A program made the translations under genes and the position numbers. From positions 1 through 64,000 of IMG/VR virus record IMGVR_UViG_3300032303_001195: DNA of 64,000 nucleotides. The stretch is one strand, 5' to 3'. How positions within the stretch are numbered: the first letter of the stretch is position 1; each line of letters starts with the position of its first letter. The notes beneath the pieces were generated by a model, which ran no database searches, was not told where the DNA came from, and saw only the letters and a list, made by a program, of their open reading frames with translations. This DNA comes from a virus (lineage: Duplodnaviria > Caudoviricetes). Shown piece by piece: positions 12,783-34,593 of this stretch.

Positions 12783-12783
12783 T

Positions 12784-13377
12784 ATGAGCGTTTTTGCAGC
12801 CACTCTTGGAACTAGTTTTTATGTTCCTTCAGGACCACCACCACCTTCAGTAATTGATCTTGGTGCTGGATATGGTCCTACTGCCAATCCTTCTGATGGC
12901 ACACTATTCAGAAGAGAATACATTGGATACCATACTGATGATATGAATTGGTTTTTATCAGCACCACTTTTAAATGCTCTTGCAGATCCAGGAATAACTG
13001 TTAATGAAACTACTACTAATAATGAATTAAGTGATAACTTCTCAGTTATGTGGACAGGATATTTTTATGCCCCATCTGGTGGTCAGTATAGATTTGGTAC
13101 AGCAAGTGATGATGGATCATACTTATGGATAGGCGATAAGGCTATTAATGACTGGAGAGTAGTAACAGCTGATGTACAAAATGGTGGTCCTCATGGATTA
13201 ACTCCCATTGAAAACACAACAGATGTTTTAATGGTTGGTGGAAGATGGTATCCAATCAGAATGGTATTTGGTGAATTTACTGGTGGAGCAGTATTCTCCA
13301 TGTCAGTAGAATTAGTTGGTAGTGGACCTGTAACTCCAATATGGCAATATAGCCAAGGTAGCCCTGAAGGGTTCTAA
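12784..13377 (+). CDS. PA14-domain (carbohydrate-binding) protein
   Basis: NFSVMWTGYF..P..G.Y.F...SDDGSYLWI...YPIR..FGE..GG. Confidence 0.8.
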   Translation: MSVFAATLGTSFYVPSGPPPPSVIDLGAGYGPTANPSDGTLFRREYIGYHTDDMNWFLSAPLLNALADPGITVNETTTNNELSDNFSVMWTGYFYAPSGGQYRFGTASDDGSYLWIGDKAINDWRVVTADVQNGGPHGLTPIENTTDVLMVGGRWYPIRMVFGEFTGGAVFSMSVELVGSGPVTPIWQYSQGSPEGF

Positions 13378-13378
13378 G

Positions 13379-13709
13379 TGGAAGTGCTGGGAATCGAACC
13401 CAGGTCCTAATCAGTTGTTGTCGGTATTCTACATGCTTAGATAGTTTCTCGAAGAGGTCTGGTTGCCACTATCAAGTCCAGATCCTTTTAACTATACCAT
13501 CCTAAGAAGCATCACATTATTTTACTGAGGATACCCACTGAGCGTGACCACTATAAGGTATCGGCTCTTTTTAATTGCCCTCGGAAGTTAGGCAGCTAGA
13601 GCGTAGCTGGATTTGTCTGCACTTATCCCTTTGTCACCAATCAAGTGATCGTGACAGTCACTACATGCTTCCCCGACACTGAGTGATTAGTCGAAAACCT
13701 TTCACTCCC
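13379..13709 (-). ncRNA. ssrA: tmRNA, tag peptide (A)ADKSSYALAA
   Basis: 5' GGGAGTGAAAGGTTTTCGAC and 3' GGACCTGGGTTCGATTCCCAGCACTTCCA form an Ala-type acceptor stem with G3-U. Resume codon follows ATAAGT at 13620, and the tag stops at 13588. Confidence 0.92.
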
Positions 13710-13728
13710 TTACGCTATTTAGTTATGA

Positions 13729-13986
13729 TTATAGTATATCACTTTGTTCACGTTCATATGTACGACGCTTGTGACAGTTTGCACAAACGACTTCACACTT
13801 AGCAACTTCTTGCCAAGCAGATTCTACACCGTACTTTTTGAGAACACGATAAACATTATCTACTTTTTTAGATCCAGGTAAATGATCAAACTCTAACATA
13901 TAGTGAGGATAATAGTTTCCACAGTCAGTGCATCCTGCGTCTTCTTTATATTGACGGAATGCTGGTAGGTAAAATCCTGGGGACAT
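13729..13986 (-). CDS. HNH endonuclease-like protein
   Basis: CTDC...LEFDH...CEVVCANCH. Confidence 0.8.
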   Translation of the reverse strand: MSPGFYLPAFRQYKEDAGCTDCGNYYPHYMLEFDHLPGSKKVDNVYRVLKKYGVESAWQEVAKCEVVCANCHKRRTYEREQSDIL

Positions 13987-14020
13987 TAATACTATTATAG
14001 CGTAACTGTTATAATAGAGT

Positions 14021-18618: not shown

Positions 18619-19131
18619 ATGATTGAAGTAACACTATCAAAAGAACGTGTAGCAGAAACACTAGAATTCGTAAAGGCTATGCGTGAAGCAAAAGAAAAGC
18701 ACAATGTAACTGATAAGATGTTTGATCGTAATAACACATCTTCAGGTATCAATGTCATTGGGCATCTTGGAGAACAGGCTATTGGACAAGCACTAGGATT
18801 TCCAGTTGATACAACTGTATTGATTGGTGGAGACAATGGGTCCGATATGGTTGTTGATGGTATGACTATTCAGGTAAAGACCAGCCAGCTGAAGAGCCTT
18901 ATCTTCAATGCTTCTTGGCAGTTCAAGTCTGATATTGCTGTCCTGGTACAGTATGTTGGCGAAGATAAAACCAAGTCAGAAGAAGATCCTCGGTTCATTA
19001 TCTGGGGGTATGTAGATAGGGAAACATTCAAAGCTAACCACTATAAGAAAGACTATGGTTATGGAGAACGTCTCGTAATGGATGCAAAGGATCTATTGCC
19101 TATTGAGTCTCTGCAATTTGCGAGGGTATAA
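18619..19131 (+). CDS. PD-(D/E)xK nuclease-like protein
   Basis: GxLGE...GSD...IQVKT motif. Confidence 0.55.
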   Translation: MIEVTLSKERVAETLEFVKAMREAKEKHNVTDKMFDRNNTSSGINVIGHLGEQAIGQALGFPVDTTVLIGGDNGSDMVVDGMTIQVKTSQLKSLIFNASWQFKSDIAVLVQYVGEDKTKSEEDPRFIIWGYVDRETFKANHYKKDYGYGERLVMDAKDLLPIESLQFARV

Positions 19132-19826
19132 AACGATGCGTTCGTAATACCTATATATAGAATAAGCCCTAGTCAGAATACATTGTTTTGATTGGGGTTT
19201 TTCTATTTGCCACATAGCCACATATGCGAAGATCATGTTACCCCCAAACATTCCCAGGACTATATATAGTGCTTCGTAATCCTTTTTTATACTATATGTA
19301 GATAGTTATGCACAGGTTTATTCACAGATTATCCACATATATCTGACTGAATATATAAATATAGACTAAGTGTTGTTTGATAGGATAGTGTTTGAGTAAT
19401 TGCGCCTCTATATCTAGGGGCTTCGTAATCCCCCAAACACTACATCTAGTATCCAAATATCCAAATCAAACAATCCACATAGCCCCAAGTCCCCAAACAA
19501 TGTATTTGAGAAGCCCAAATAAGTGTTTATATATATAGGGAAAATGATCTATTTTGATCAGAAATGTATTCATATATATAGGATTTGTTTATATATAGGG
19601 GATATTTGTAGGATTTCGTAATACCCTGGCGGATCCCCCCAAAAATCGGGGGTATTGTTAATGCCTACCAAACCACAAATTAACCACAGTAATACAAATA
19701 CCCAATAGAAGTATAAACACTATAGCTGCGATATCCATTTGATCTCCTTTCGTAAAAAGTCCCACGATTTTTTTAGGTCCTTCGTAATGTTATTTTTTGA
19801 TTTGGTGATTTGGATGCCCTAGGGGT
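19132..19826. repeat. AT-rich non-coding region with iteron-like repeats and tandem DnaA boxes
   Basis: TTCGTAA(T) at 19141, 19273, 19422, 19615, 19749, 19781. Also TATATATAG and CCCCAAAC repeats, and DnaA boxes at 19306, 19318, 19329. Confidence 0.8.
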
Positions 19827-19836
19827 GGGCGCCGCC

Positions 19837-19858
19837 CCACCTCCCCGAAGGGAGGCAG
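19837..19858 (-). terminator. cUUCGg hairpin, exact 22-bp repeat of 22153-22174
   Basis: CCTCCC-TTCG-GGGAGG on the minus strand, between a stop codon and the palindrome. Confidence 0.6.
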
Positions 19859-19867
19859 GGGTAGCAA

Positions 19868-20173
19868 CTACTCTTCTGAGTCAGCCTTGAGGTTTAGGTT
19901 ATCATTGGCAAGATTTACAATATCATTAAGGCTCTCAAACCCTGTATCCTCTAAGCCATAGATAGCCAGCAAGACATCAAATGTCTCGTTGATAAACTTT
20001 TCGGACAACTCGGTAGGCTCTACAATGCCATAAGCCAAAGCATAGGCAAGGGGTAGACCCAAGTCGTTGTAGTCAATGAAGTCCTCAAAGTCTGATTCGT
20101 TCTTGTATGTTACCCATAACTCAGCAAGGATTTCACACTTGCTAGAAAAGGGGGTCGATGTTGTTTCTGACAT
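19868..20173 (-). CDS. Hypothetical protein
   Basis: MSETTSTPFSSKCEILAELW...YNDLGLPLAY. Confidence 0.75.
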   Translation of the reverse strand: MSETTSTPFSSKCEILAELWVTYKNESDFEDFIDYNDLGLPLAYALAYGIVEPTELSEKFINETFDVLLAIYGLEDTGFESLNDIVNLANDNLNLKADSEE

Positions 20174-20351
20174 ATTCCATTTCTCTCTCATATTGTGCTG
20201 ACTCTGCAATTACGATAATGCGATGATAAGATACATTCGGTGCTTGTCTACCAAGATACCTTCCAACTTCCTCGATATCTAGTGTCAGGTCATTTACTAT
20301 TGTGGCAAGTTTTTTAGCCGCTTTTTCCTCTTCTGTTAGTTGCTTTTTCAT
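20142..20351 (-). CDS. Hypothetical protein
   Basis: ORF with GGAG RBS. Confidence 0.7.
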   Translation of the reverse strand: MKKQLTEEEKAAKKLATIVNDLTLDIEEVGRYLGRQAPNVSYHRIIVIAESAQYEREMEYVRNNIDPLF

Positions 20352-20377
20352 ATTACTCCAGTTTAGCAGTTGGTTGG

Positions 20378-20752
20378 CTAGTTGTCAATACCCTGCATTT
20401 GGTACGGTGGAAGATTGTTAAGGTAATCAACAATACGCTGTGGTACGTTCTTGTATACCTGAAGAATTGAATAACTATCTAACCAAAAATCTTCATCTTG
20501 AGCATAGTCGCCTCCGTCATCAATCCCAACACCAAGAGTCATCTGGTCAGCTTCTTCCTGAGTTAAATAAATATCTAGCTCTTGTCGCTCACGTCCTGTG
20601 CCATAAGATGCATAGTCTTCTGCAATCTCATTAAAGCTAAACTTCCATTGTGAGTTTTCCTTGGTAGGCTCTTCCCCATTCATGAGGTTGTGCCATCCTA
20701 GGTTCCAGATGTTGACATCATATACGTTATCTAATTCAACTCTCATTGTCAT
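20378..20752 (-). CDS. Hypothetical protein
   Basis: Acidic 124-aa ORF. Confidence 0.7.
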   Translation of the reverse strand: MTMRVELDNVYDVNIWNLGWHNLMNGEEPTKENSQWKFSFNEIAEDYASYGTGRERQELDIYLTQEEADQMTLGVGIDDGGDYAQDEDFWLDSYSILQVYKNVPQRIVDYLNNLPPYQMQGIDN

Positions 20753-21119
20753 CTTTGTCCATCTCGCATTCGCTACAAATAATTACAGGTGTTCCATCAT
20801 ATCGCTTGTGGTCTACCCACACATGCTCGTCCATGTCGCACAGTGTCATTTCATATATGTCTATCTGAATAATTACATCTTGGTTATGTGGTATGTGACA
20901 GACATAGAATCCCATGCGATTGACAAAACTAATACCATTACTGATTACACTGTAGTCACCACCGTCTGTCCATGTCCAAAGATATTCATTGTCTATCTCT
21001 TGAATGATATCGTAGTCTGCACCATATGTTTCATACATAACAGGATTACCATCAAAATCACAGATTGGTTTGTATTGCTCTACCCACTCGTCGTAGGTAA
21101 GGTCGATTATAGTATTCAT
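20736..21119 (-). CDS. Hypothetical protein with C-terminal Zn motif
   Basis: Leaderless ORF after a TGTC-box promoter. Contains YETYG..WT..DG...VNRMG and C..H...CxxC. Confidence 0.75.
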   Translation of the reverse strand: MNTIIDLTYDEWVEQYKPICDFDGNPVMYETYGADYDIIQEIDNEYLWTWTDGGDYSVISNGISFVNRMGFYVCHIPHNQDVIIQIDIYEMTLCDMDEHVWVDHKRYDGTPVIICSECEMDKDDNES

Positions 21120-21147
21120 AGTTACACCTTATCACTAGGGTACGACA

Positions 21148-21381
21148 TTAGGAATATAGGGCGATGTATTCGTCAATAAGGTCTGGTTGGAATCCACTCC
21201 ACCACATGGTCCCTGCATTAACGACAGGAGCAGACTTAAATCCCTCGGCTAAAAGTTGATCGAGTGCGTCTACATCCTCGGTAATATCGACGGTAGTGTA
21301 GGCTACACCTTTATCGTCAAAGTACTTCTTAGTAGCATTACACTGTACACAGTTAGGTTTGGTATAGATAGTAGGAGTCAT
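21148..21381 (-). CDS. nrdH: NrdH-redoxin
   Basis: IYTKPNCVQC...APVV...WSGFQPD. Confidence 0.9.
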   Translation of the reverse strand: MTPTIYTKPNCVQCNATKKYFDDKGVAYTTVDITEDVDALDQLLAEGFKSAPVVNAGTMWWSGFQPDLIDEYIALYS

Positions 21382-21384
21382 ACT

Positions 21385-21630
21385 CTAGTTTACCACGGTC
21401 CGATACTGCTTATTCACAAAGTAGTCTTGTGAGTAAATAGTTTTCATCTCATGGTCATGTACACATCGTTGATAGTTTTGGAAAGCTAGCTCACCATAGA
21501 AAAACTTAGGTCGCTGTCCCTCTAGTACTACCTTATAAAAATCATTCTCGGTATCTGACTCCCATACCTCTGCAACCTGGGAATGATAGATACGACGCCA
21601 AACCTGGTCAGCTGCTTTTGGTCTACGCAT
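21385..21630 (-). CDS. Hypothetical protein
   Basis: Coupled start MRRPKAA. Confidence 0.6.
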   Translation of the reverse strand: MRRPKAADQVWRRIYHSQVAEVWESDTENDFYKVVLEGQRPKFFYGELAFQNYQRCVHDHEMKTIYSQDYFVNKQYRTVVN

Positions 21631-21742
21631 TATGGGTGTACTTCCTCTCCTGTACAAATAACTATTTCATTATTCTTATCTACAAATACATGCATGTTAG
21701 GAAAAGCATTCCCTACTAGTCGCTCTACCTCAGCTACAGACA

Positions 21743-21922
21743 TCATGCCTCTTCCTCCTCGTCTTCATCGCCCTCTTCATAGATAAGCTCTGCATCTACA
21801 GAATCGACGGAATCGTACTGAAGGTTCTCCATATAGTATCCTAATTGCTCTGCCTCTTCCTGAGACTCAGCCTCGATAGTACCAGAAAATCTAATTAGGG
21901 TTTCAACATAGTATTGGTTCAC
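21743..21922 (-). CDS. Small acidic hypothetical protein
   Basis: Hand translation ...IEAESQEEAE... with an acidic tail. GGAG RBS and GTG start. Confidence 0.6.
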   Translation of the reverse strand: MNQYYVETLIRFSGTIEAESQEEAEQLGYYMENLQYDSVDSVDAELIYEEGDEDEEEEA

Positions 21923-22185
21923 AGCATCTCCTCTAGTTGTTCATCGGTCAGGCTATCAATTCTAGCAAGACCCTCCGACAGCATCATGGCAATAGCCTTT
22001 TCTAATTCGTTCATATGTATAGTATGGCATGAGGGTACGACATTCTGCAACTTTTCAAGCCTTTCGTTACCTTATCGTAATCTGGGAAATATGTTTGTCT
22101 ATCGTAATGCATTAGAAATGAATGTTTGTATACAAATGGATCGGCGCCGCCACCACCTCCCCGAAGGGAGGCAGTGACTGACCGA

Positions 22186-23208
22186 CTAGGAAGCCATTGT
22201 CATATTCTGAACAATGCGAAGAATACGGTTCTTCTCTGCGTTCATAGCAGGGTCAAAGCCAGAAGCCGAAGCCAACACAGACTCGTTGTTACCCTTGCGA
22301 CCATTACGATACCAGTCAAGCCGTTCGGTGATACCGTTGAGCACCCCCCAAGCCGTTCCCGAAATCGTGTTGTTGAACTGACCGTTGTAGATGTCCTCAA
22401 CGAGTTCCAACTTAGTCTGCCACTTGGACATAGCACCCTTAGCGTCCTTCTCAGGCATGGGGTAGACCTCACGAAGAATGTCTTGGAACTTGTCGTTCGT
22501 GACCTCAGTCTCAATCATAGCCTGAGCCATCTTGTCAAACTCGTCCATGTATTCATTCGCAAGACCGAGAGCGATACGAGCCTCATTGACACGACCCTCA
22601 GCCGTCTGAGTGTGACGAATCTTGAACGACTGCTTGGCACTACGCCAGTGACCTGTGCCACTACCGATAGCCATGTTCAGAGTGTTCGCACATACGACAC
22701 GCACAGGCGTGATGCTCGCCATAATGGACACCGACCCATCGTGAGATGTGTTTACCAATAGGTAAGTGTTTACCTTGTCGCCTACACCCTTGGGGTCAAG
22801 CACAGTCTCACGCTCAAGAGCCAAAGCACCAAAGACAACACGACCACCCTTGATAGAACCAGCCGTCTCCCAGCGTCCACCACCATCGAGCAGGTTGTCA
22901 CCAAAGGTAAACAAGTCCTCATTCTGAAGCGTGTTGTAACGCTCACCAACGATACCCAGAATGTCTTTCTGACCATCGGTGAATGGGTTATTACGAGTAA
23001 CAAAATAGTTAGTCTTGTCAGAGGTGAATCCGTCAGGAATAGGAATCTCAGTCAAACCGACATTCCACTTGTCAAGGTGAGCAAGTTCGAGCATCTCAGA
23101 GGTAGTTACTTCTTCCTCCATGACCGTACCCAAACCATGCCACGCAGGTTCACGCAGAGTAGCAAAAGCGACCTCGCCGTTCGCACCCTGTTCAAGTTCG
23201 TGTGCCAT
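22186..23208 (-). CDS. DUF932-family phage/plasmid protein
   Basis: PAWHGLG, WETAGSIKGG, NTSHDGS, TPVRVVCANT, RHT, TAWG..N..TE..D. Confidence 0.9.
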   Translation of the reverse strand: MAHELEQGANGEVAFATLREPAWHGLGTVMEEEVTTSEMLELAHLDKWNVGLTEIPIPDGFTSDKTNYFVTRNNPFTDGQKDILGIVGERYNTLQNEDLFTFGDNLLDGGGRWETAGSIKGGRVVFGALALERETVLDPKGVGDKVNTYLLVNTSHDGSVSIMASITPVRVVCANTLNMAIGSGTGHWRSAKQSFKIRHTQTAEGRVNEARIALGLANEYMDEFDKMAQAMIETEVTNDKFQDILREVYPMPEKDAKGAMSKWQTKLELVEDIYNGQFNNTISGTAWGVLNGITERLDWYRNGRKGNNESVLASASGFDPAMNAEKNRILRIVQNMTMAS

Positions 23209-23353
23209 GTATAGCCTTTCATTAGCGGTTGTTTAGTTATATAAGTATGACACAGACCACCGACAATTACAAGCTCCAGAGACATATTCTTAATCATCGT
23301 AATTGAAATGTTACATTCGCAGATCGGGGCGCCGCCCTCGGAGGGTATGAGAA

Positions 23354-23380
23354 TAGGCAGTTTAAAGACATGCCTAGGTC
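23354..23380 (-). ncRNA. Conserved H-type pseudoknot motif, copy 1 (others at 24637-24665 and 25157-25183)
   Basis: GAC-C-UAGGCA-U-GUC-UU-UAAAC-UGCCUA, with compensatory changes between copies. Confidence 0.7.
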
Positions 23381-23435
23381 TATTGGATGGAGCCAAGAAA
23401 GGAATTAACAAAACTCCATCCTAGCTTTAAGGTCC

Positions 23436-23954
23436 CTACTCGTCCTCAAACTCCACAGAGTCAAGGTCGTAGTCGAAACTACTCAGAGCGTCATAGCCAT
23501 AAGCCACATTCAGGTCAGCCTCAAGTTCATAGCGGTCAAGTTCATCAGTGTCCTCAAAGATACTAATCTCAATCTGACCAGAGAAGTTGATACTACCAGA
23601 TACGTTTACGGTCTTGGTGAGTTGGCAACCGACCAATTCAGCAATCTCTTTAGCACCAGCATTGGTGACAAGTTCATGGTCAATCTGAGTCTTGAGAAGT
23701 TCCCCAAGGTTCTTACGGATTTCGTCAATTTGACGAGCCTCACGGTAGTAGTTCTCTTCCCAACGTTTAGCCTTATTCTCAAGTACCTCAATGTCTTTCT
23801 TCAAGTCACCAATCTGCATTGCGAGTGCAGTCTCGATACCGAGGTCAGCCTCTGGTACAGTTCCAGATAGGATTCCGCCTACAGGTGGCAATTCCTTGTG
23901 CTCCACGTTCTTGTATCCCATAAGTTGGTCGTAGGTTTCGTAGTTCTCTTCCAT
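23436..23954 (-). CDS. Hypothetical coiled-coil protein
   Basis: 172-aa ORF. Confidence 0.75.
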   Translation of the reverse strand: MEENYETYDQLMGYKNVEHKELPPVGGILSGTVPEADLGIETALAMQIGDLKKDIEVLENKAKRWEENYYREARQIDEIRKNLGELLKTQIDHELVTNAGAKEIAELVGCQLTKTVNVSGSINFSGQIEISIFEDTDELDRYELEADLNVAYGYDALSSFDYDLDSVEFEDE

Positions 23955-23956
23955 TA

Positions 23957-24211
23957 TTAGTTCCCCATTTCTTGAAGCATTTCAATAGTGTTGTTGAGAG
24001 TCTCAAAACCCTCTTCACCGAGGCAAACCTCAGCGGTAAGGAATGAGGACATAGAAGCAACCTCACCCACAAGGGCAAGCAAAGCACTACGCATAGTGTC
24101 CTCAGTCATTTCGAGACGGTCATACAGAATGGCACTAGCCAAAGTGATAGCCCTATCTGTTCGTACAGATTCACGGACAGCAGTCTGTAATCCAAAAGCA
24201 ATGTCAATCAT
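23957..24211 (-). CDS. Hypothetical protein
   Basis: Own promoter and GAAAGGG RBS. Confidence 0.7.
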   Translation of the reverse strand: MIDIAFGLQTAVRESVRTDRAITLASAILYDRLEMTEDTMRSALLALVGEVASMSSFLTAEVCLGEEGFETLNNTIEMLQEMGN

Positions 24212-24258
24212 TCTTTTCCCTTTCGTTGTTGACTTTAGTTTAGCAGTACCCACCGACA

Positions 24259-24480
24259 CTAGTCGGATAGGTCAGTGATGTGAGTGACGATAGTGTCAGT
24301 CTCACCCTCTTCAATCAAGTCCATAGCCTCTTCAGCGTCGATATCAAATTCGGGGTAGTTAGACTCGTCCAAGTATCCCATACCGACATTCCAAATAGCC
24401 TCAGCCTCGTCAGCAGAGTTTGCTCTAACCAAATAGGTAGTGCCATTGATAATTTCGTATAATCCCTTTTTCTTTTCCAT
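24259..24480 (-). CDS. Hypothetical acidic protein
   Basis: Leaderless ORF after a TGTC-box promoter. Confidence 0.7.
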   Translation of the reverse strand: MEKKKGLYEIINGTTYLVRANSADEAEAIWNVGMGYLDESNYPEFDIDAEEAMDLIEEGETDTIVTHITDLSD

Positions 24481-24675
24481 ATATAGAGTATGACACTACC
24501 CTCCGACATTTGCAAGCTCCAGGGGTCTATTTCGTAACATCGTAACCTGTTTGTTATATGGGCGGCGCTGATCGGCGCCCCCCACGAAGAAACCCCCTGC
24601 TACCAGCAATCTATCCAGACGCTTCACAGGGGGGAGTGAGTAGTTTACTTAGACATACTCAGGTCATTTTTCTAC

Positions 24676-25125
24676 TTACAGCAGTTCCATTACGGTGTTG
24701 TAGGTAGAGGCATTGACTTCCTCTTGGTTTGTCATTTTGAGAACCTTGAGGTTCTTCTTGAGCAAGTCCAACTTCGTCGTGTAGTCACGACCATACGACT
24801 GACGCTCATTCGGGTTAGAAGGTTCGACAGGCTTGGCAGGAAGGTCAAGCGAGTCGGTGTTTACATGAACAGTTACGCCACCAAGACCATAACGATTAGC
24901 CTCAACACGGATAATCGAGTCATACGAATCACCAATGTTGTCAGGGTTCTTGAGAGCCTCAATAACAGCCTGAAGAACAGCGTCGTTGTACGACTTTGTA
25001 GCCTGACGGAATGCTTCCTTGTCTTTGGGGTAGGTAGCAATGTCAGCCTCAAGTTTGGCAATAGTAGCCTCAACATCAGCAATCAAAGTTGCGGTGGGGA
25101 TTTTTACAGCAAGTGAACGAGCCAT
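24676..25125 (-). CDS. Hypothetical protein
   Basis: 149-aa ORF with AAAGGA RBS. Confidence 0.8.
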   Translation of the reverse strand: MARSLAVKIPTATLIADVEATIAKLEADIATYPKDKEAFRQATKSYNDAVLQAVIEALKNPDNIGDSYDSIIRVEANRYGLGGVTVHVNTDSLDLPAKPVEPSNPNERQSYGRDYTTKLDLLKKNLKVLKMTNQEEVNASTYNTVMELL

Positions 25126-25201
25126 TAGATTCCTTTTCTTTAGCAGTTTGTTTGAGTGGGCAGTTTAGCCTGATACCCAGCAGACAGACTAGGGTCTGAC
25201 C

Positions 25202-25342
25202 TTACTTGACCGTTGTCCAACGGCTGTCACCGTTAGGCAGGGTGAGCAGAACACGAGTCGAACCGCTTGCGTTCTTGATTACCTCGGCAATCGTGCCAGT
25301 CACACCCGACTTCTGCGTGGTGAAGATTTCTCCGATATTCAT
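25202..25342 (-). CDS. Small SH3-like hypothetical protein
   Basis: MNIGEIFTTQKSGVTGTIAEVIKN...RWTTVK, with GAGGA RBS. Confidence 0.7.
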   Translation of the reverse strand: MNIGEIFTTQKSGVTGTIAEVIKNASGSTRVLLTLPNGDSRWTTVK

Positions 25343-25509
25343 TGCTTCCTCATTTCTGTTGGCGAGCCAGCCAACTTATTTGTCCAAGCCGTTTGCTTGT
25401 TATACAAGTATGACACACACCACCGACATTATCAACTCCAAATGGCACTTTTGGGAGTTTTGTTATCATTTCGTAACCTAATTTTTGGGCAGGGGGGCGC
25501 CGCCCTCCA

Positions 25510-26232
25510 CTACTTTTTAGTAGCAGAGAACAGAATGTCATTGCGTTGGAAGATACATTGCCCACAGGTAACACAGGCACTACCCTTTTCGCTAATCATG
25601 GGTAGTTTCTTGTTATTTTCGGGGCATGGGATAGCACTCTCACCAGTAATTTCAAGAATGTCAGCCTTACCAATAGCGAATGTCTGAGCAAGGTAAGCCA
25701 ACTTGATACCGTGAGTCTCTTTTAGACTGATAGCCAATTCTTTGTTAGCACTATCGGTTGAGAAGTAGAAACCAAGATTAGGAATGTCAATCAGGATAGG
25801 CACAGCAAAGTCTGAACGTGTGTATGCCCAGAATTGCACATCTTGAAAGTCACAAATCACATCACGCCATGCATATGTGTAGTCTTCGTTGAAGAAGTCA
25901 CCGTCCCAGTGAATGCGGAATAGTTTTTCTGCACCACGACGCTCGCAATCAGAAACAAAATCCTCAATCATCTCATGGATAAGGTTATACATGGTTAGGT
26001 AGTCAGCGTCTTTGACTAATGCCCAGTTGTGTTCGAGGTTGATACGCACACCCTTGAATACCTTTTCCAACTTGCCAGCGTAGCAGATAGTTTCGCATAC
26101 GCTAGTAGCACCTGGACATGAGAAGGCAGTGCCAGAAGGCAAACCAAAAGTGTTAGCGATACTAGCCTGTTTGCCATTAGGCGTTACAGCGTTGGTTACT
26201 TTACGGTCTTTAGAGCGAATCAACTTTGTCAT
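25510..26232 (-). CDS. GP88-like (radical-SAM-related) phage protein
   Basis: FGLP.G..CPGA...C...CYA and FRIHWDGDF...YTRS, with C-terminal CP...CxxC..C. Confidence 0.75.
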   Translation of the reverse strand: MTKLIRSKDRKVTNAVTPNGKQASIANTFGLPSGTAFSCPGATSVCETICYAGKLEKVFKGVRINLEHNWALVKDADYLTMYNLIHEMIEDFVSDCERRGAEKLFRIHWDGDFFNEDYTYAWRDVICDFQDVQFWAYTRSDFAVPILIDIPNLGFYFSTDSANKELAISLKETHGIKLAYLAQTFAIGKADILEITGESAIPCPENNKKLPMISEKGSACVTCGQCIFQRNDILFSATKK

Positions 26233-26369
26233 AGTCTTACTATACATTGACCCACCGACATTGGGGGATACAGGATCTGGTCGGCGCCGCCCCTAGGGGT
26301 TGTGCGTTATCGAGTCGCACCCCTCGGTCAGGTTCTCGCAATCCTGACATTGTTAGCGAGAGTCTTTGA

Positions 26370-26864
26370 CTACCAAGAAGCCTGATAGGTGAAACTCACA
26401 CTATCGTCACCGTAGGTCTGAATCAGAACACGGTCTAACTCTTTGGCGGTGTCCTCCAAGTCTGACCAATACCACTCGTCATACTCAGTTGAGCCAAAGA
26501 AGAAGCCTGACGAAGTAGGCAGAGCCACAGGTGCTTTCTCACGGTGAATGAGAACATCCTTTACCAAGTCACGCAAGTCCTCTAAATCCTTGCGACGGAC
26601 ATAGATAGGCTGACACTCGTCTACACCGTTGGCGAGATTGTCCACAAACCATTGGTGAATTGCATTTGCCTTACGCCAATAGATAGCGGTAGCAGTTACA
26701 GAAACGCTGTAGTTATGCTCGTCGGTCACGAAGTTTTTGAGTCCAGCAGTCTCAAGAATAGCCAAGCCTTCTGGCACATCCTTTTTGACAATATCGCCAT
26801 TCTCCTGAACCCAATCAGAAGTTCGAACATTCTTGCGAACCTCAAGATACATGTCCAAGCCCAT
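26370..26864 (-). CDS. Conserved phage hypothetical protein
   Basis: MGLDMYL...YWRKANAIHQWF...LPT..GFFFGS.EYD...Y.ASW. Confidence 0.8.
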   Translation of the reverse strand: MGLDMYLEVRKNVRTSDWVQENGDIVKKDVPEGLAILETAGLKNFVTDEHNYSVSVTATAIYWRKANAIHQWFVDNLANGVDECQPIYVRRKDLEDLRDLVKDVLIHREKAPVALPTSSGFFFGSTEYDEWYWSDLEDTAKELDRVLIQTYGDDSVSFTYQASW

Positions 26865-26910
26865 TAGTTTTTCCTTTCGTTTCTTTTTATTTTAGCAGTA
26901 CCCACCGACA

Positions 26911-27018
26911 TTACTCACAATTGTGAAACACATAACTGCTTGCGATATCGGTAAAGCCACACTCAACACATTCGCACATAAGTCCAGCACGAGTCGGGGT
27001 AATAATCATTTTCGTCAT
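26911..27018 (-). CDS. Micro Zn-finger protein (35 aa)
   Basis: CxxC...HxC, leaderless after a promoter copy. Confidence 0.55.
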   Translation of the reverse strand: MTKMIITPTRAGLMCECVECGFTDIASSYVFHNCE

Positions 27019-27198
27019 AAAATAACTATAACAGCACCCACCGACACTGGGGGGCGCCGCCCTCCTATGGATTCCTAGACTTGATTTTTCTAACTACTGA
27101 CTCAATGATAAACAACACTGCAAAAATCAAAGGGGATAAAATAGCCATCCCAATAATTATTGCAATCAGTGTGAGCGTTAGAATTATTAGAAACCCCA

Positions 27199-27976
27199 CT
27201 ACTCAAGCACCTCATATTTGGGATTAGAATATTCTCCCCTTACCCGAATGGATTCCTCGAACATCTTCCAGCCTGTTTGGAATGTCTTTGGGTGACAGTA
27301 TTGGTCAAGGGAATACAGGATATCCTCGCCATCAGTGTTTGGGTCAAAATCTTCGGGTACGGTAACATCAGTAGTCAGCGTAGTAGTGATACGATATGTA
27401 GGCATTATGCTCCTTAGTGGTCAATTTCGTGGTACAGGCAGGTAGTGCAGATTTTTGTCCAGTCGTTACCGTCGCCTTCATCGGGTGCGAGGGTATCGGG
27501 TGCAAAGTCATTACAAACAGTCATTTTACTCCTTAGAGAAACTCGAATGGGTCACGGTCTTGGAAGATATCCTCAAAGTCTTGCATGGAATAGGATTGTG
27601 GATTTTCATACCACTCTTCCAATGCCTCCAGGATTTCCATACCCTGCTCGTCACCCTCAAACGGATTGCTTTTCATCCCACACCTCCGAATACTTTACAA
27701 TGAACTCACGAACACTTGGAACATGAGTGAAGTCTGCTTCCTTATTTAGTGCCATGTCTAATAGGTCACCAGCCACGATAGCCAGAAACTGTTTCTCTTC
27801 CATTATGCCTCCCACTTGTCGGTTGGTAGTCCATTCAGTATAGCGTAGACGTACGACATTTTCTCGTAGTCAGGCAGGATTTCGAGGGTATCCCATTGGG
27901 CAATAGTCACGTCAGTAGTATCAAACACTAGACAATCTTCTGCCCCATAGTTACCATACTCTGATACATAAGCCAT
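27199..27976 (-). CDS. Operon of five small hypothetical ORFs (27803-27976, 27657-27803, 27533-27676, 27414-27524, 27199-27405)
   Basis: Tiled ORFs with RBSs downstream of the promoter copy at 28016. Confidence 0.6.
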
Positions 27977-28046
27977 GATTTTTTCCTTTCGTAAGTAATC
28001 CTATTATGACACTACCCACTGACATTGGGTCGGCGCCCCTGGATCT

Positions 28047-28122
28047 TGGCTCCCCCTCATGGACTCGAACCATGAACCTGCTGATTAACAGTCAGCTGCT
28101 CTGCCAATTGAGCTAAAGGGGA
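28047..28122 (-). tRNA. tRNA-Asn(GUU)
   Basis: Canonical cloverleaf, CTGTTAA loop, encoded CCA. Confidence 0.95.
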
Positions 28123-28123
28123 A

Positions 28124-28200
28124 TGGCGACTCTGACCAGACTTGAACTGGCGACCCCTACCGTGACAGGGTAGTGCTCTAACCAACTGAGCTACAGAGCC
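28124..28200 (-). tRNA. tRNA-Asp(GUC)
   Basis: Canonical cloverleaf, CTGTCAC loop, encoded CCA. Confidence 0.95.
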
Positions 28201-28214
28201 ATTGTCCTATTGTA

Positions 28215-28376
28215 TCAGGCATACTCCCGAATAGCAACCTGCTTGATTGCCCCACGAGTCCTCTGACGGTTAGGTCGATTGTCGTGAGTGGTAGCCGCAT
28301 TGGAACTACGCAGACCACGCATAGCAACAATGTATGCGGTGTTCTGAATCTTCTTGGGTGCTGTCTTTTTCTTCAT
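28215..28376 (-). CDS. Small basic hypothetical protein
   Basis: LRSSNAATTH...RQRTR, leaderless after a promoter copy. Confidence 0.65.
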   Translation of the reverse strand: MKKKTAPKKIQNTAYIVAMRGLRSSNAATTHDNRPNRQRTRGAIKQVAIREYA

Positions 28377-28468
28377 ATCTCAATACTAGCAGTGACCACT
28401 GACATTGGAGGCATTTTTAGTAATATACTTAATAACATTCCGATAACGGATCGGGGCGCCGCCCCCCC

Positions 28469-29767
28469 CTAAAAGGGAGGTCGGTTCAGTAGTGCCTCAT
28501 ATTCGGCTTCCTTGTATTTCGTGTACAGGTACAGAATCACAAGGGTGTCGAACAGAATCACGCCCATCATTATGACGAACAGCCAAAATAGGTTCATTAG
28601 TTCTCCTCGAAGTCATAGCAAGCGTTGATAAATACATTGCGTTGGAATCGCTCATTGTCCTTAGCAAACATATCTGCGAAGTCATGAACAAGGTCAAGCA
28701 TACGCTGTTCGTTACTGATTGGCATATCACCAATAAAATCAGCAAGAATGCTAGCGGTTTCCACATAGTCTTTGCGTGTCATCATTTTAGTGTGTCCTTT
28801 TCTTTGTTGGTTTTAGTTTACAGCAAGCCACCGACACTACGAACCGTAGACGGTCAGCAGTGTGCGGTAGCCATTGGCACGACCCTCGCACCACGAAGCC
28901 ATGCCTTCCATGCCAGCCTCACGGTACATGATTACATCAGCCTCGTTTTGCTCGGCAAGCCACTCAAGCGATTCGACTGGGATAGTGATTGTGTTTTCCA
29001 TAGTTTTCCTTTCGTTGTATAACAACTGTATCAGTACCCACCGACATTGCAGGGCATTTACAGCGTGTTTCGTATAACGGTTTGATAACAGTCGGGGCGC
29101 CGCCCCTGCTAGTTGTAGCCCTCTACCCAAATATTTTCCTCTAACAGCATGTCCACATAGTCAGCGAAGCCACAGCGGTATGCGATTGGGTCACAGTTCT
29201 TGAGAATGTCTGCAGGGTAGAACTCTGAGTAGCCAATGGTCACAATGCCATAGCAATCATTTAGATATGCGTCATAGTCATCTCGGGCTTGTTCTTCGGA
29301 CAGGATTTCGTGCTTTGCGATTTCGTTCATATAATGACTATAACACTACCCACCGACAGAGGTCGGCGCCCCCCTAATATCCATAGTCTTCGTCAGTACC
29401 CCAGCCAGCAGAGGCAAGAGCATCTGCATCCCACCAAGACTCGTCTGGCTCGTAGTCCTGAGACTCAAGAGAGTTGCCAGAGATGTCCCAATAGGCTTCG
29501 GTGTCCTCAACAGTCCACTCATTGCCGAGGTCGTCAAGGTAGGCGACAATCTCGTTACCCTCACCAAAAATAGGCTCAAAAATCATTAGTTATCCTTTCG
29601 TTGTTATAACAAGAATAGCAGGGGGTACTGACACTCCTCCGTAATTCACTTGGTAAGCGGATCGGCGCCGCCCCCTACCAGCGGAAGTCTTCCTGTTCGT
29701 CATACCATTCCTGGTAGACGTATTCGGTTCCACAGCCACAGCAGGGGCGGTCTTCACATGTACACAT
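28469..29767 (-). CDS. Six micro-ORF cassettes (28469-28597, 28597-28785, 28837-29001, 29109-29330, 29374-29586, 29675-29767)
   Basis: Each is framed by a promoter/RBS and a palindrome or the next promoter. They include MTRKDY...ERF...AC and CEDRPCCGC peptides. Confidence 0.7.
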
Positions 29768-29816
29768 AGTGTGCCTTTCGTTTGGAGTGATAAAAGAATA
29801 GCAAGGGCTACCGACA

Positions 29817-29972
29817 CTACATGTTTCTAGTGTCAGCCTCAGCCACGATTTCCGCATCAGGGAACACCTTGATACAGGTGGCACACAGTGCGACAGGGGT
29901 TTCTCGCAAGAAGCCAAGCTCAATAAGGTACACAGCGTCTCGGTGCTGGCAGAATTCACATTCGGGGTTCAT
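29817..29972 (-). CDS. CxxC-CxxC micro zinc-finger protein
   Basis: MNPECEFCQHRDA...LCATC...IVAEADTRNM. Confidence 0.65.
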   Translation of the reverse strand: MNPECEFCQHRDAVYLIELGFLRETPVALCATCIKVFPDAEIVAEADTRNM

Positions 29973-30133
29973 AGTTTTCCTTTCGTTACCACTAGACTAG
30001 CATGACCCACCGACATTGGGGAAAATTTCCGAGGCGTTTTAATGCGCTTACGTAAACTGATTTTGGAATGGTCGGGCGGCGCCGACCCCACCGACATTTG
30101 TCAAGCGACACGCCGATCGGGTTGACTTATTTT

Positions 30134-30265
30134 TCAGGGGCAGAAGGTCGCCCAAAACAAAAGAATAAACCAATAGGCAGAGTACAAAATAGCAAAAGCC
30201 ATACCAATGCGAACAACTGCCCTAGCGATACCACGAACAACATAGTAAGTCTTTGAGTGATTCAT
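30134..30265 (-). CDS. Small membrane protein
   Basis: AGGAG RBS and a hydrophobic C-terminal half. Confidence 0.6.
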   Translation of the reverse strand: MNHSKTYYVVRGIARAVVRIGMAFAILYSAYWFILLFWATFCP

Positions 30266-30272
30266 TATGCTC

Positions 30273-30443
30273 CTAGTCTGCAATCGGGAAGATATCAAGA
30301 ATCGGGAAGGCAGTTTCCAATTCATCGCACACGATAGCATCGTGGCACTGTTGACAGACAGCGACAAAAGTCAGTTCGACAATTTCGGTGTCATACTCCA
30401 AGACTTCACGAGCCTCACGGTAGTCACAGATTTCACATTCCAT
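30273..30443 (-). CDS. CxxC-CxxC micro zinc-finger protein
   Basis: MECEICDYREA...VCQQC. Confidence 0.65.
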   Translation of the reverse strand: MECEICDYREAREVLEYDTEIVELTFVAVCQQCHDAIVCDELETAFPILDIFPIAD

Positions 30444-30595
30444 TAGTTTTCCTTTCGTTTACGTTTTGATTCTAACAGCACCCACCGACATTCACATACG
30501 CGACACGCCGATAACCCAGAAAAAAGTTATCCACATCTTAAATAAAAGTTATCCACAGGGCGGCGCCGCCCCCTGCGACATTTGTCAAGTCCTGG

Positions 30596-30955
30596 CTAGG
30601 CGTTTCGCAAATATTCCATTGCCCTAGCGATGCGGTCTAAATCATCTTGGAACACGCCCAAGCCACGGTTACAGTTGTGGCAGATGTGTCCACGGAATGC
30701 ACCTGTACCGTGGTCGTGGTCTACTACCCACACCGATGCGTTGCCACCTGTTCCCTTTAGTTCATCTTCTGACTTCAGGCAGATAGGGCAGGTGTGTCCC
30801 TGTTCGGGGTAGCCATACTCTTTACGCAGAGCACGACGCTCACTAGACAACTTACGACCACAGTCACGGCACTCAGGTCGCAGGTACTTGCCACCAGAGG
30901 CAGGGGAGAATGAAGCGTGAGGTAGGGACTCTTGGCACTTGGAACAGGTTTTCAT
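30596..30955 (-). CDS. Endonuclease VII-family (HNH-type) nuclease
   Basis: CPIC...VVDHDH.TG..RG..C..CNRGLG.F.DD. Confidence 0.9.
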
Positions 30956-31160
30956 AGGTTTCACTTTACGCTAGGGTACTGACATTGTGGTAAGCGACAC
31001 GCCGATTACAGGAAAATTTTCAAGGCATTTTAATGGATCTACGTAAATGTGGATAAGTTATCAACAGGCGGCGCCGATTTTTTTGGAATACGCAAACCGA
31101 CACGCCGTGTATTCCAAAATTGGCATATGCGAGAGATCCCGATTTGGGGAGGGTAGTCTG

Positions 31161-31298
31161 CTAACTAGCAAACTCGCCCTCTTCACGCATGATAGCGAAA
31201 CGCTCGCTAATCAGGCAAGGCTTACAGATAAGCCATTCACCATGTGCGGACACATAGACAGTCTCTACAGACTTTTCACAAACTTCACAAATTTTCAT
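31161..31298 (-). CDS. CxxC-CxxC micro zinc-finger protein
   Basis: MKICEVC...ICKPC. Confidence 0.6.
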   Translation of the reverse strand: MKICEVCEKSVETVYVSAHGEWLICKPCLISERFAIMREEGEFAS

Positions 31299-31315
31299 TT
31301 TGAGTTTTCCTTTCT

Positions 31316-31471
31316 TTACTTGAGAGCGTCAAGCATACGCTCGAACGCCTCTTCGGTTAGTGACACGGTAGCCATGCCGATTACGAATGGGTAAGCCTCT
31401 GTGCGAGACTTGAGGTTGTACTTAGCGACACAAGCGTCAAGCACCTGATTCATCATTTCTGATTTTTCCAT
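31316..31471 (-). CDS. Small hypothetical protein
   Basis: GAAAGG RBS, and a repeated 5'UTR motif upstream. Confidence 0.65.
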   Translation of the reverse strand: MEKSEMMNQVLDACVAKYNLKSRTEAYPFVIGMATVSLTEEAFERMLDALK

Positions 31472-31667
31472 TTTAGTTTTACCTTTCTTTAGCGAGTGAG
31501 ACTTATTTGCTCTGAGACTTATTTGCTAGGCTCACCTTTCGGATTATTTGCTAGGCTCATTCTCTGAGGCTCATTCTCACTCTGTGTAGTTTTTATCTTA
31601 TGTCTTGAGACTATCAGACATTATCTGAAAAGTCAAGCCGACACGCCGTGTTTGCGAAAAAAAGTTT

Positions 31668-31775
31668 TTATTTCTTTTCTGCCATGAATGCGACCATCAA
31701 GCCAAGCAATTCTTCCTGGCTCATGTCTTCCATGTCCTGAACACCTTCGGTGGTGATTACCTTCATGAAACCCAT
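31668..31775 (-). CDS. Micro-ORF (35 aa)
   Basis: GAAAGGAG RBS after a promoter copy. Confidence 0.6.
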   Translation of the reverse strand: MGFMKVITTEGVQDMEDMSQEELLGLMVAFMAEKK

Positions 31776-31997
31776 TTGGTTTCTCCTTTCTATCTGTAAA
31801 CAGACTAACAGTACCCACCGACATTCGACCCCCTGTTTTTCCATCTAGGGGAAATTTTTAGGTAAACATAAGGTAAATTCTTATCCACAAAGTTATCCAC
31901 AGGGGGGCGCCGCCCCCACCGACATTTGTCAAGTCGACACGCCGTGTTTGTCAAAATTAGTTTGTGGTCGATCCACGAGCCACCAACAGGCGACACC

Positions 31998-32144
31998 CTA
32001 GTTTCGGGTATCAGCCTCAGCGACTATGTAGTGAGGCGTAGTCATGCGAGACTCGCAACGCACACACACATAGGTAGGCATGGACTCCATCATCATCATG
32101 ATTTCGAGAGTAGCCTCATAGTATTCACAGAATGTACAGGTCAT
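31998..32144 (-). CDS. CxxC-CxxC micro zinc-finger protein
   Basis: MTCTFCEYYEA...VCVRC...IVAEADTRN. Confidence 0.65.
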   Translation of the reverse strand: MTCTFCEYYEATLEIMMMMESMPTYVCVRCESRMTTPHYIVAEADTRN

Positions 32145-32189
32145 AGTTTTCCTTTCTTTGTATTTACAGTATGACATAGGGTACTGACA

Positions 32190-32390
32190 CTACAGTACGG
32201 TCACCTTGTTTCCAAGGGTAGCGTAGGCAGTAGTGCCATTAGTAAAAGTAACCTGACAGGTAGTACCGTTCAGTCCTTTCACGTTAGCGATAACACCTGT
32301 GTAGTGAAACACAGGTCCAAACGGATAAGGCTTGTTGCTGAACGCAACACGCTTTCCGATTAGGGATTTGATTTTTTGAGTGTAAGTCAT
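32190..32390 (-). CDS. Small beta-rich hypothetical protein
   Basis: GAAAGGA RBS. Confidence 0.7.
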   Translation of the reverse strand: MTYTQKIKSLIGKRVAFSNKPYPFGPVFHYTGVIANVKGLNGTTCQVTFTNGTTAYATLGNKVTVL

Positions 32391-32629
32391 GATTGACTTC
32401 CTTTCTTTTTAGGAGGGATTTATTTGCTAGGCTCATTCCCGATTGGGACTTATTTGCTAGGCTCACTCCCTCGTGACTTACTTACAGTATCGCAGTACCC
32501 ACCGACATTGGAGGGCATTTTAGTAGGGGTTTCACCCTATTTTTAGGTTAACGTAAGTATAAAGTTCATCCACAGAGTTATCCACAGGGCGGCGCCGCCG
32601 CCTCAAACATTTGTCAAGGCGACACGCCG

Positions 32630-32859
32630 TTAGGCGTTCATTTTCTTTTTGGTCAGAGCTAGCAACTCTTCGAATTCCAATTCAGTCATGTACTCACCCT
32701 TAGCAATGAGCATGAGTTCTTGATAGCGTGACATTAGTTTACCTTTCGTTAGTGTTTTGATTTTAGCAGGTGGTACTGACACTAGAGTCCGAATATCTTT
32801 ACCAAGATAACGAACACGAGGGTTAGTACCGATACTGTGAATGAGACGATAGCGAGCAT
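32630..32859 (-). CDS. Two micro-ORFs (32782-32859 single TM peptide; 32630-32734)
   Basis: Each has its own promoter copy and GAAAGG RBS. Confidence 0.6.
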
Positions 32860-33534
32860 TTGAGTTATTACCTTTCTTTGTTATGACTATAGTCAATCAC
32901 TAACCACCGACATTAGCAATGCGACACGCCGATAAGTGAAAAAATAAAAAAAAGAAAGTTTTGGGGGTGTGTAGTGGTGTGCTCACTATAGTCGACCCCC
33001 CCATAGGCTATTTTTTCTGTATCGTTCATCTTTAAAAAATATTCAGATTTTCATCAAATCCAAAATAAAAAATTTTTCAGATTTTAGCCATACACAGATT
33101 TAAGAATCAGGATCACCAGGGTGTACGATAGGACAATAGCCACAGCACCTGCGAGGATCAATCCGATATTTTTCAGGGCAGACAAAATCTTCGTCATGCT
33201 GTGATTGTTTCGGGGGTACGGTTAACAAGTCCATAATGCAAAGCCCATATAGTAATAAGCTTGTATGAAACCTTCTGCTCTTTGCTGATAGCACGAACAC
33301 TCTTGGTTTCTAGCTCTTTAGCGAGCCAATCTTTGTTTTCATAGTTTTTTACTTTGACTGGATCCATTATTCTCTCCTTAGAATGAGTCGGCGTCAGGAA
33401 TTAAGTTTATGTCATGGCAAATGCAATATTCTGGATCTCCATTAAAGATGCAGACGCATTCTTCTGATTTGTTAAGGTTTAAAACTTCGGGGGTATCACA
33501 AGAACAATTACCATTACACATAGTAATAATTATA

Positions 33535-33729
33535 TCACCATTTACCAACAGGACATGTAGCAGCTTCTAGCTTTGTTTTAAGCTTCATGAAGCATCCACA
33601 CTTTGTACAAGAAACTGTTAGCTTATTCAAGAAAGGACATTCAAAACAAATTGCTAGTCTTTCTTTTTGTAATTCTTCTTTTGATCTAGGTTCATTTGGA
33701 TTCAATAGGTCCCAAGGCTTAACACTCAT
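33535..33729 (-). CDS. Small Cys-rich protein (DUF6171-like)
   Basis: RLAIC..CP...C..CGCFM..K......CP..KW. Confidence 0.7.
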   Translation of the reverse strand: MSVKPWDLLNPNEPRSKEELQKERLAICFECPFLNKLTVSCTKCGCFMKLKTKLEAATCPVGKW

Positions 33730-34133
33730 ATATCAAGTATAACACTTCGGATGGTTTATTTTTCGAGGGTATACAACAGCCAAAGGCTGTCTTGATCAAA
33801 CACACATAGTGATAATTACTCTTGATCAAACATAAGAAATCCCCCTATACTAATATAAGGGGAAATCTATTTGGGGGTTTGCTGGTTTCCGATTTGTTAA
33901 TCAAACCTGAATGGCATGACTGGGGTCTTATCCAGGATATCACAAAAATCTCATATCAGAGTAGCTCCGCTATCATACATATTTGTCTATTTGGATGTTT
34001 CATCTGTTTGGACATAGTGTATGGGGTACTTCTCGCCGCCGATTTTTACCGCCGAACAATAGGAGCTTAATTAGTTATATGTTATAAACAGGGTGTGGAT
34101 AACTTTATAAAATACCTGTATAATTATACTATT

Positions 34134-34436: not shown

Positions 34437-34593
34437 GATTCTTTATCCTATATTCTTTCTAGCCTAATATTATTCTCTTCCCAATTATTACAATTATACA
34501 CATACAATTACCGTTCTTGATATCAAAATCTCAAATATTTTATAACGATTTGATAACAAATACATATCGTTACCAATATGTTATAATTGTTTT

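Follow-up and report, generated by a model that had tools for sequence, protein, structure and literature searches.

The early-gene array and its promoters

The window analysed here is the first 64 kb of IMG/VR record IMGVR_UViG_3300032303_001195, a linear phage sequence of 92,156 bp that is about 85% complete. Its portal protein is 46% identical to the portals of the Streptomyces BE-cluster phages Yaboi, BoomerJR and Coruscant. We focused on an array of small early genes and on the spacers between them, which contain sequences matching the consensus sites of the bacterial regulators DnaA, WhiA and MtrA (Table 1). An earlier note on this DNA had described the array as tiled with sites for these three host cell-cycle proteins and had proposed that it serves either as a decoy (sponge) or as a sensor of the host cell cycle. 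Each small gene of the array has its own promoter. Between about 22 and 33 kb the GC content is 0.46-0.49, versus about 0.40 in the flanks.

The array promoters fit the bipartite promoter of PafBC type, whose motif tGTCgg(N10)tA(N3)T comprises a -26 element and has no -35 consensus (PMC8635444). PafBC may be a fourth host factor of the array, one that the earlier note had overlooked. No report of phage promoters of PafBC type was found in the literature searched. Genes for tRNA-Asn and tRNA-Asp (28047-28200) lie downstream of one such promoter, at 28404.

A 340-aa protein encoded on the minus strand at 22186-23208 corresponds to gene 2-4 of the BE phages, which is present in two places in each BE record. 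BE-cluster phages have a direct terminal repeat of 10-12 kb (PMC7650747, PMC8612146) that is richer in GC than the remaining genome (PMC8612146). The duplication of the gene in each BE record indicates that the counterpart of the 340-aa gene falls inside this repeat, and Coruscant and Yaboi have a gene layout matching the array. We infer that the array is a single collapsed copy of a long terminal repeat with early genes. The terminal-repeat status is thus a prediction from homology with the BE phages.

As the earlier note had stated, the phage encodes a WhiB-like protein, and this gene points to an actinobacterial host. The replication genes encoded by the phage include a DnaB-type helicase, a DnaG-type primase, Pol III alpha and RecA; no replication initiator was found among the replication genes of the roughly 85% complete record. 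Within the same limit, neither the DNA-binding domain of DnaA nor a winged helix of OmpR type nor the helix-turn-helix of WhiA is encoded in the record, so that host proteins are the likely binders of the sites described below.

DnaA, WhiA-type and MtrA-type sites

The asymmetric 9-bp sequence TTATCCACA is the form of the DnaA box with the highest affinity (PMC8287927). It occurs eight times without mismatch in the 92,156-bp record, always within 19329-34102 and six times within 30527-32586; the reversed control pattern occurs once. Together with four neighbours that carry one mismatch, these boxes form pairs or triplets (19306/19318/19329, 30527/30549, 31048/31058, 31881/31893 and 32566/32578), with a typical distance of 3 bp within pairs. 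These DnaA boxes are all intergenic, as are the 10-mer boxes described next. The pairs directly adjoin a GC block or small hairpin located behind the stop codon of the gene before, and in most copies the distance from a TTGACA hexamer to the DnaA box is 22-25 nt.

The 10-mer CGACACGCCG is present in eight exact copies in the record, all on the plus strand and all within 30106-32931. Shuffled sequences gave 0.36 copies even with one mismatch allowed, and the reversed control gave none. The top motif of WhiA in Mycobacterium tuberculosis, determined by ChIP-seq, is CGACACGCCGn, and an 8-bp site GACACGCC was found by ChIP-seq and in vitro (PMC13473873). The core of the Streptomyces WhiA site is GACAC (PMC3781837). 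All eight boxes are identical to the M. tuberculosis motif over the 10-mer and contain both GACACGCC and the GACAC core. WhiA together with WhiB acts upstream of the -35 element on the housekeeping holoenzyme, a position from which WhiB can contact sigma region 4 as a bridge, with variable spacing and strand (PMC10243135). In the window, six of the eight boxes end 1-2 nt before a -35 hexamer or 9-10 nt before a -26 element. At three places (30076-30115, 31904-31944 and 32586-32629) the box is followed by a perfect -35 hexamer and then by a GC palindrome where a -10 element is expected. Two of these three half-promoters also carry a PafBC -26 element.

Pairs of RTWAY at a spacing of 11 bp form the third class of sites. 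Six unique pairs were found in the spacers (22081, 23314, 24557, 25477, 28447 and 29089), at most two at any other spacing from 4 to 26, and four at a spacing of 3. Shuffles contained about 0.3 such 11-bp pairs, and in 300 of them the observed number was never reached. Only the pairs at 28447 and 29089 are strict direct repeats GTTAY-N6-GTTAY, the other four being of mixed orientation. The strict repeat is the reverse complement of the MtrA site of Corynebacterium glutamicum, which consists of two 8-bp RTAACAAT units with a 3-bp linker, its activator sites being located upstream of the -35 element (PMC3353115). Read on this strand the consensus is GTTAY-nAAATT-GTTAY, and the GTTAY half-site, the period and the A-rich linker are all equal. 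The repeat also fits the MtrA consensus of M. tuberculosis (cGWnAYc) and that of Streptomyces coelicolor in half-site and 11-bp period. The motifs of MtrA and GlnR overlap strongly (PMC13718301), and a different OmpR-family protein could therefore be the regulator.

The four looser pairs share the word TTACGA, and in three cases a promoter TGTC follows at a distance of 49 nt downstream. TTACGAW is not enriched genome-wide (38 matches versus about 36 expected), and 15 of the 38 matches are on the minus strand at 19.1-25.5 kb. These four pairs may represent a different site.

The controls bear out what the earlier note had said of the abundance and arrangement of the motifs. DnaA 9-mers, 10-mers and 11-bp pairs are far above their shuffled or reversed controls and are confined to 19.3-34.1 kb. 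Within the array, DnaA and 10-mer boxes are found only in the upstream 2.9 kb (in the sense of transcription) and 11-bp pairs only below 29.1 kb; the six pairs span 22.07-29.09 kb, exactly the range claimed. The proposed assignment to DnaA, WhiA and MtrA is supported better than expected by the 9-mer, the 10-mer and the strict repeat, which match the respective consensus; the four mixed 11-bp pairs do not follow the direct-repeat rule.

Table 1. Positions of the array, its promoters and the putative regulator sites in the window.
Feature	Position	Strand	Context
Early-gene array	22066..32931	-	About 30 small leftward genes, each with a strong ribosome-binding site
16 promoters TGTCRG-N10-TAnnnT, exact	21959..32781	- (all)	1.28 expected
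WhiA-type box	32922..32931	+	9 nt upstream of TGTC element of first array promoter
WhiA-type box	32620..32629	+	Directly after stop codon; then 2 nt, TTGACA, GC palindrome and DnaA pair; without -10
WhiA-type box	31935..31944	+	Composite module as at 32620 (box, -35, GC palindrome, DnaA pair)
WhiA-type box	31639..31648	+	2 nt upstream of canonical -35/-10 promoter (TTGACT, 17 nt, TAGTCT)
WhiA-type box	31098..31107	+	In short inverted repeat, upstream of GC block and divergent DnaA pair
WhiA-type box	30995..31004	+	10 nt upstream of TGTC, promoter at 30984
WhiA-type box	30501..30510	+	10 nt upstream of TGTC, promoter at 30490
WhiA-type box	30106..30115	+	Followed by 1 nt, TTGACA, PafBC-type -26 element and GC palindrome; no DnaA box after
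DnaA pair	32566..32586	+	One exact, one with 1 mismatch; 3 bp apart; abuts GC palindrome
DnaA pair	31881..31901	+	Both exact; 3 bp apart; abuts GC palindrome
Back-to-back DnaA boxes, 1 bp apart	31048..31066	opposite strands	Exact (-), 1-mismatch (+) adjoining GC block
Two exact DnaA boxes	30527..30557	+	22 nt start-to-start; second abuts GC palindrome
Three tandem DnaA boxes, 11-12 nt period	19306..19337	+	In 600-bp AT-rich, non-coding, repeat-rich stretch
Exact DnaA box	34094..34102	-	Over -35 position of rightward extended -10 promoter; outside array
Strict MtrA-type repeat	29074..29089	-	Just past palindrome; starts 43 nt upstream of promoter TGTC
Strict MtrA-type repeat	28432..28447	-	Same palindrome/promoter position as 29089 site; 43 nt upstream of TGTC
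Four looser 11-bp RTWAY pairs	22066..25477	-	22081, 23314, 24557, 25477; each includes TTACGA word
Phage WhiB-like protein	4964-5134	+	Pfam Whib, 39.9 bits; outside array

Several other readings of these elements were considered and dropped. The unit of box, TTGACA and GC block was rejected as a promoter: no -10 element is found at a distance of 16-18 nt, and in most copies the DnaA box, at 22-25 nt, is too distant to take that role. GCCGATAA, found beside three of the boxes, was dropped as a -10 element of sigma-WhiG/FliA because it has no -35 partner and its strand is the wrong one. A weak resemblance to the stoperator of mycobacteriophage L5 was likewise dropped. Half of the 11-bp repeats match the consensus of Escherichia coli IHF by eye; this reading was dropped because E. 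coli-type IHF is not known from actinobacteria.

The only larger gene of the DnaA/WhiA sub-region (30596-30964, minus strand) encodes a protein of 122 aa containing Cys pairs and the motif DHDH...CN, which by eye resembles an endonuclease VII or HNH-type nuclease. Two 5' leaders of the same sub-region (31514-31564 and 32415-32470) each contain two copies of a 26-nt repeat with the core GAGCCTAGCAAATAA, located between the promoter and the ribosome-binding site. In the AT-rich stretch at 19100-19800, which includes the three tandem DnaA boxes, ATTACGAA occurs five times on the minus strand, and there are also several repeats that are GTTTGGGG or resemble CCCTATATATA. Relatives have a cluster of DnaA boxes at the equivalent place, 3-4 kb downstream of the 340-aa gene, and the stretch is a candidate origin, packaging site or repeat boundary. 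To the right of the array, the extended -10 promoter with a DnaA box (34094-34130) precedes a gene for a small membrane protein. Two further strict GTTAY-N6-GTTAY repeats, on opposite strands and facing each other, are located at 34542-34584 upstream of the first rightward genes of the structural region.

Conservation and registers in uncultured relatives

The set of relatives comprised 15 IMG/VR loci around homologues of the 340-aa protein (54-94% identity), 238 kb in total. The DnaA 9-mer was found 52 times on the gene strand and 9 times on the other strand (reversed control, 0 and 2), and CGACACGCCG 24 times and twice, respectively (reversed control, 0 and 0). Tandem DnaA pairs 3 bp apart numbered 24 and were all on the gene strand. 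Pairs of GTTAY at a spacing of 11 occurred 44 times on the gene strand, with at most seven at any other spacing. The motifs were kept also in relatives with differing promoter spacers and palindromes. Conservation in related phages had been named in the earlier note as a check; all three motifs recur in the diverged IMG/VR relatives, and the DnaA and 10-mer boxes do not extend to the cultured BE phages, as described below.

The half-promoter module is also present at many junctions of the relatives, in most cases with a DnaA pair next to it, and its spacing is kept while the intervening sequence varies. A composite with 25 fixed bases (box, 2 nt, TTGACA, 20-30 nt, DnaA box) was detected in 24 stretches on 22 IMG/VR contigs from many samples, and the gap to the DnaA box was 22-25 nt in 18 of the 24. 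Across the clade, 82 distinct contexts of the WhiA-type box were collected, with a -35 hexamer after 1-2 nt or a -26 element after 7-11 nt. The arrangement of box, 1-2 nt, TTGACW, 20-30 nt and DnaA box was found in 27 contexts and the strict promoter pattern in 22. One or other strict pattern thus accounts for 49 of the 82, and in many of the other contexts the box belongs to a promoter whose spacer is one base longer.

The consensus of the MtrA-type repeat was built from 39 distinct sites. The distance from the start of the repeat down to the -10 element was 58-60 nt in 16 of 21 scored cases, and the repeat spans about -71 to -56. In some relatives an MtrA-type repeat directly follows the DnaA pair. 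The most distant relative (L013) has DnaA boxes directly upstream of canonical promoters. In another relative, L022 (IMGVR_UViG_3300021226_000167), the sequence runs into an Illumina TruSeq adapter at the contig end, 9 nt past a pair of DnaA boxes; this junction could be a physical DNA end or a chimeric read.

Neither DnaA boxes nor 10-mer boxes were found in the cultured BE phages Coruscant and Yaboi, even when the high-GC form of the box was included. Between their terminal-repeat genes (positions 1-14000) these two genomes have repeated GC palindromes of their own, the top 10-mers occurring 13 and 11 times, respectively. The sites are therefore specific to a low-GC uncultured clade. Megablast of the whole array against cultured phages returned nothing. 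Short blastn with one junction returned only DnaA pairs of the T5-like type, read in BF23; the full module was not matched in any cultured phage. DnaA boxes were not reported for Streptomyces phages in the literature searched.

Possible functions of the sites

The reading that we favour, with about an even chance of being right, is that the spacers are composite control regions in which sites for host proteins act in cis on phage transcription. The literature motifs come from other actinobacteria. The matches to consensus, the counts, the conservation and the registers were read directly from the DNA, and from them we infer that host proteins bind and in which direction they act. The early promoters, with a -26 element and a -10 element and no -35 element, would be driven by the holoenzyme of the host after adaptation by PafBC. 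Within the 2.9 kb at the upstream end, WhiA with WhiB, either the host's or the phage's own, would assist promoters from a box 1-2 nt upstream of the -35 hexamer. A phosphorylated regulator of MtrA type at about -60 would assist promoters as well, the position from -71 to -56 being typical of an activating response regulator. DnaA bound to the pairs at gene ends, beside the GC block or U-less hairpin, might block read-through or modulate the next promoter. Early expression would in this way depend on the replication, division and DNA-damage status of the host.

Several observations weigh against this reading. Three or four of the eight WhiA-type boxes precede a -35 hexamer without a -10 element, and such an arrangement cannot activate a normal promoter. 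The mixed orientation of four of the 11-bp pairs misfits a head-to-tail dimer of a response regulator, and the array has only two strict repeats. The junction hairpins are short, have no U-tract and as RNA fold no better than shuffles, so we do not claim them as proven terminators and a terminator role is putative. The cultured BE phages do without DnaA and WhiA boxes, which indicates that the sites are not essential to this genome architecture. A phage-encoded binder could also have been missed in a record that is about 85% complete.

The DnaA pairs might instead mark a DnaA-dependent origin, or a DNA-entry or end signal like the injection stop of T5, with the WhiA and MtrA sites regulating promoters independently. 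We regard this as a serious alternative of fairly low probability. The phage has the replisome genes listed above and no initiator was found; the arrangement of tandem boxes 3 bp apart beside a GC block is reminiscent of the paired boxes in the bacterial origin unwinding system (PMC8287927); and the left terminal repeat of T5-like phages contains the same 3-bp-apart pairs (bioRxiv 10.1101/866236). Cumulative GC skew is lowest at 32-34 kb, and the triple DnaA box lies in the AT-rich, repeat-rich stretch at 19.1-19.7 kb. However, the GC skew changes where the genes change strand, and the pairs are found at four or five junctions, not at a single locus. In E. coli oriC the unwinding element is on the CCACA side of the DnaA boxes. 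Here the unwinding side consists of a GC block of 10-16 bp, then the -35 hexamer and the GC-rich 10-mer, not of an AT-rich element, and obvious trinucleotide repeats are missing from it. In the origin unwinding system, consensus boxes are likewise arranged in tandem with no more than 3 bp between them and with GC-rich bases next to them, but the GC-rich part is about 4 bp long, and at least 3 DnaA-trios and an AT-rich unwinding element come after it. As inspection revealed no frame with repeated DnaA-trios and no AT-rich element, the origin-unwinding reading of the pairs was rejected. The boxes of L013, directly upstream of canonical promoters, also argue against an origin, and for DNA entry the role of the pairs in T5 is itself only a hypothesis.

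Two other explanations appear less probable still. According to the first, the sites mainly titrate DnaA, WhiA and MtrA off the host chromosome, above all after amplification of the phage DNA, and thereby arrest replication and division. Clusters of high-affinity-type sites for three cell-cycle regulators would suit such a sponge, the half-promoters lacking a -10 element could hold protein without transcribing, and there would be two copies per genome if the block is a terminal repeat. A pure decoy, however, would need no fixed registers to the -35 element, the -10 element or the gene ends, and the registers are tight and conserved; for this reason we prefer a role in cis. Each copy would offer only about 12 DnaA-type, 8 WhiA-type and 2-6 MtrA-type sites, slow titration of regulators would be of little gain to a virulent phage with its own replisome genes, and the cultured relatives manage without the sites. 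Between the sponge and the sensor of the earlier note, the fixed positions relative to -35, -10 and GC block favour the latter kind of role, in cis, and nothing specific for a datA-like sponge was seen. The datA locus of E. coli is a single cluster of five boxes with an IHF site, and the array has no single five-box cluster of this kind. It is equally improbable that the sites are read by phage-encoded proteins or are structural elements (phased A-tracts or UP-like elements), with a coincidental likeness to host sites at least for the 11-bp repeat and the 10-mer. Dozens of the small early proteins have no assigned function, several of them contain Cys-X2-Cys pairs, and about 15% of the genome is missing; moreover, the repeat consensus has A-runs phased at 11 bp, and the by-eye fit of half the repeat sites to the IHF consensus would suit a structural role. 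The matches are nevertheless exact for 9 of 9 positions of the DnaA box and 10 of 10 of the M. tuberculosis WhiA motif, and the equality with the C. glutamicum MtrA site concerns an experimentally derived sequence. A matching DNA-binding domain is missing from the record, and early promoters must work before any phage protein exists.

A more far-reaching form of the reading in cis, which we put forward as a speculation with a low chance of being correct, is that the early region is a hub reading PafBC, WhiA/WhiB, MtrA and DnaA at once and that the module of box, -35, GC block and DnaA pair, which lacks a -10 element, is a protein-gated junction of a new type. Holoenzyme parked there by WhiA/WhiB, together with the DnaA pair, would decide whether transcription passes between early cassettes. 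The same junction could also decide a pause in DNA entry, as has been proposed for T5.

Parts of the arrangement are known from other systems, the T5-like phages being the closest case. These are virulent siphoviruses in which leftward pre-early genes lie within a long direct terminal repeat. In the left copy, the first-step-transfer region, they have consensus DnaA pairs 3 bp apart in non-coding DNA towards the inner part of the repeat, conserved where the coding sequence diverges. The geometry of the pairs and their non-coding location match those found here, and our blastn search with one junction arrived at the T5-type pairs independently. The hosts, however, belong to a different phylum (Proteobacteria), and the eight T5 boxes are in one large untranslated region, within two inverted-repeat units with a constant 52-bp spacer. 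The repeat search of the present phage gave no such units; the pairs here are distributed among four or five gene junctions, and every pair is joined directly to a GC block, with a WhiA box and a -35 hexamer ahead of it. In the lytic Bacillus phages phi29 and Nf, Spo0A boxes are reported to tie early transcription and replication to the developmental state of the host (PMC2731898). There one regulator is involved and repression was shown experimentally, whereas here three or four regulators, likely including activators, are predicted from sequence.

Promoters of the WhiA/WhiB type (sepX of Streptomyces venezuelae, and the WhiA/WhiB2 regulon of M. tuberculosis) likewise have a GACAC site just upstream of the -35 element, and a WhiB partner is available here too. 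The distance from motif to -35 is about 7 nt in sepX and 3 nt here, where the motif is on the template strand. Unlike sepX-type sites, many of the phage boxes are joined to a PafBC-type -26 element or to a -35 hexamer without a -10. MtrA-regulated promoters share the 11-bp direct repeat with a GTTAY/RTAAC half-site upstream of the -35 element, as in activated genes of C. glutamicum. MtrA and DnaA sites co-occur in mycobacterial oriC.

Borrowing of a host master regulator by phages is already known from Spo0A in phi29 and from the DnaA boxes of T5. A phage early region made up of WhiA, MtrA and DnaA consensus sites on PafBC-type promoters was not reported in the literature searched. If the sites work, the array would be a compact, testable model in which a virulent actinophage sets the moment of takeover according to the host's replication, division and damage status, and it would offer natural cis-elements for the joint study of WhiA/WhiB, MtrA and PafBC. 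Paired DnaA boxes in long terminal repeats would then have arisen in phage groups that are not related to each other, and this suggests that they have some general function. Outside the array, the window also contains a tmRNA gene at 13378-13709, with the tag ADKSSYALAA.

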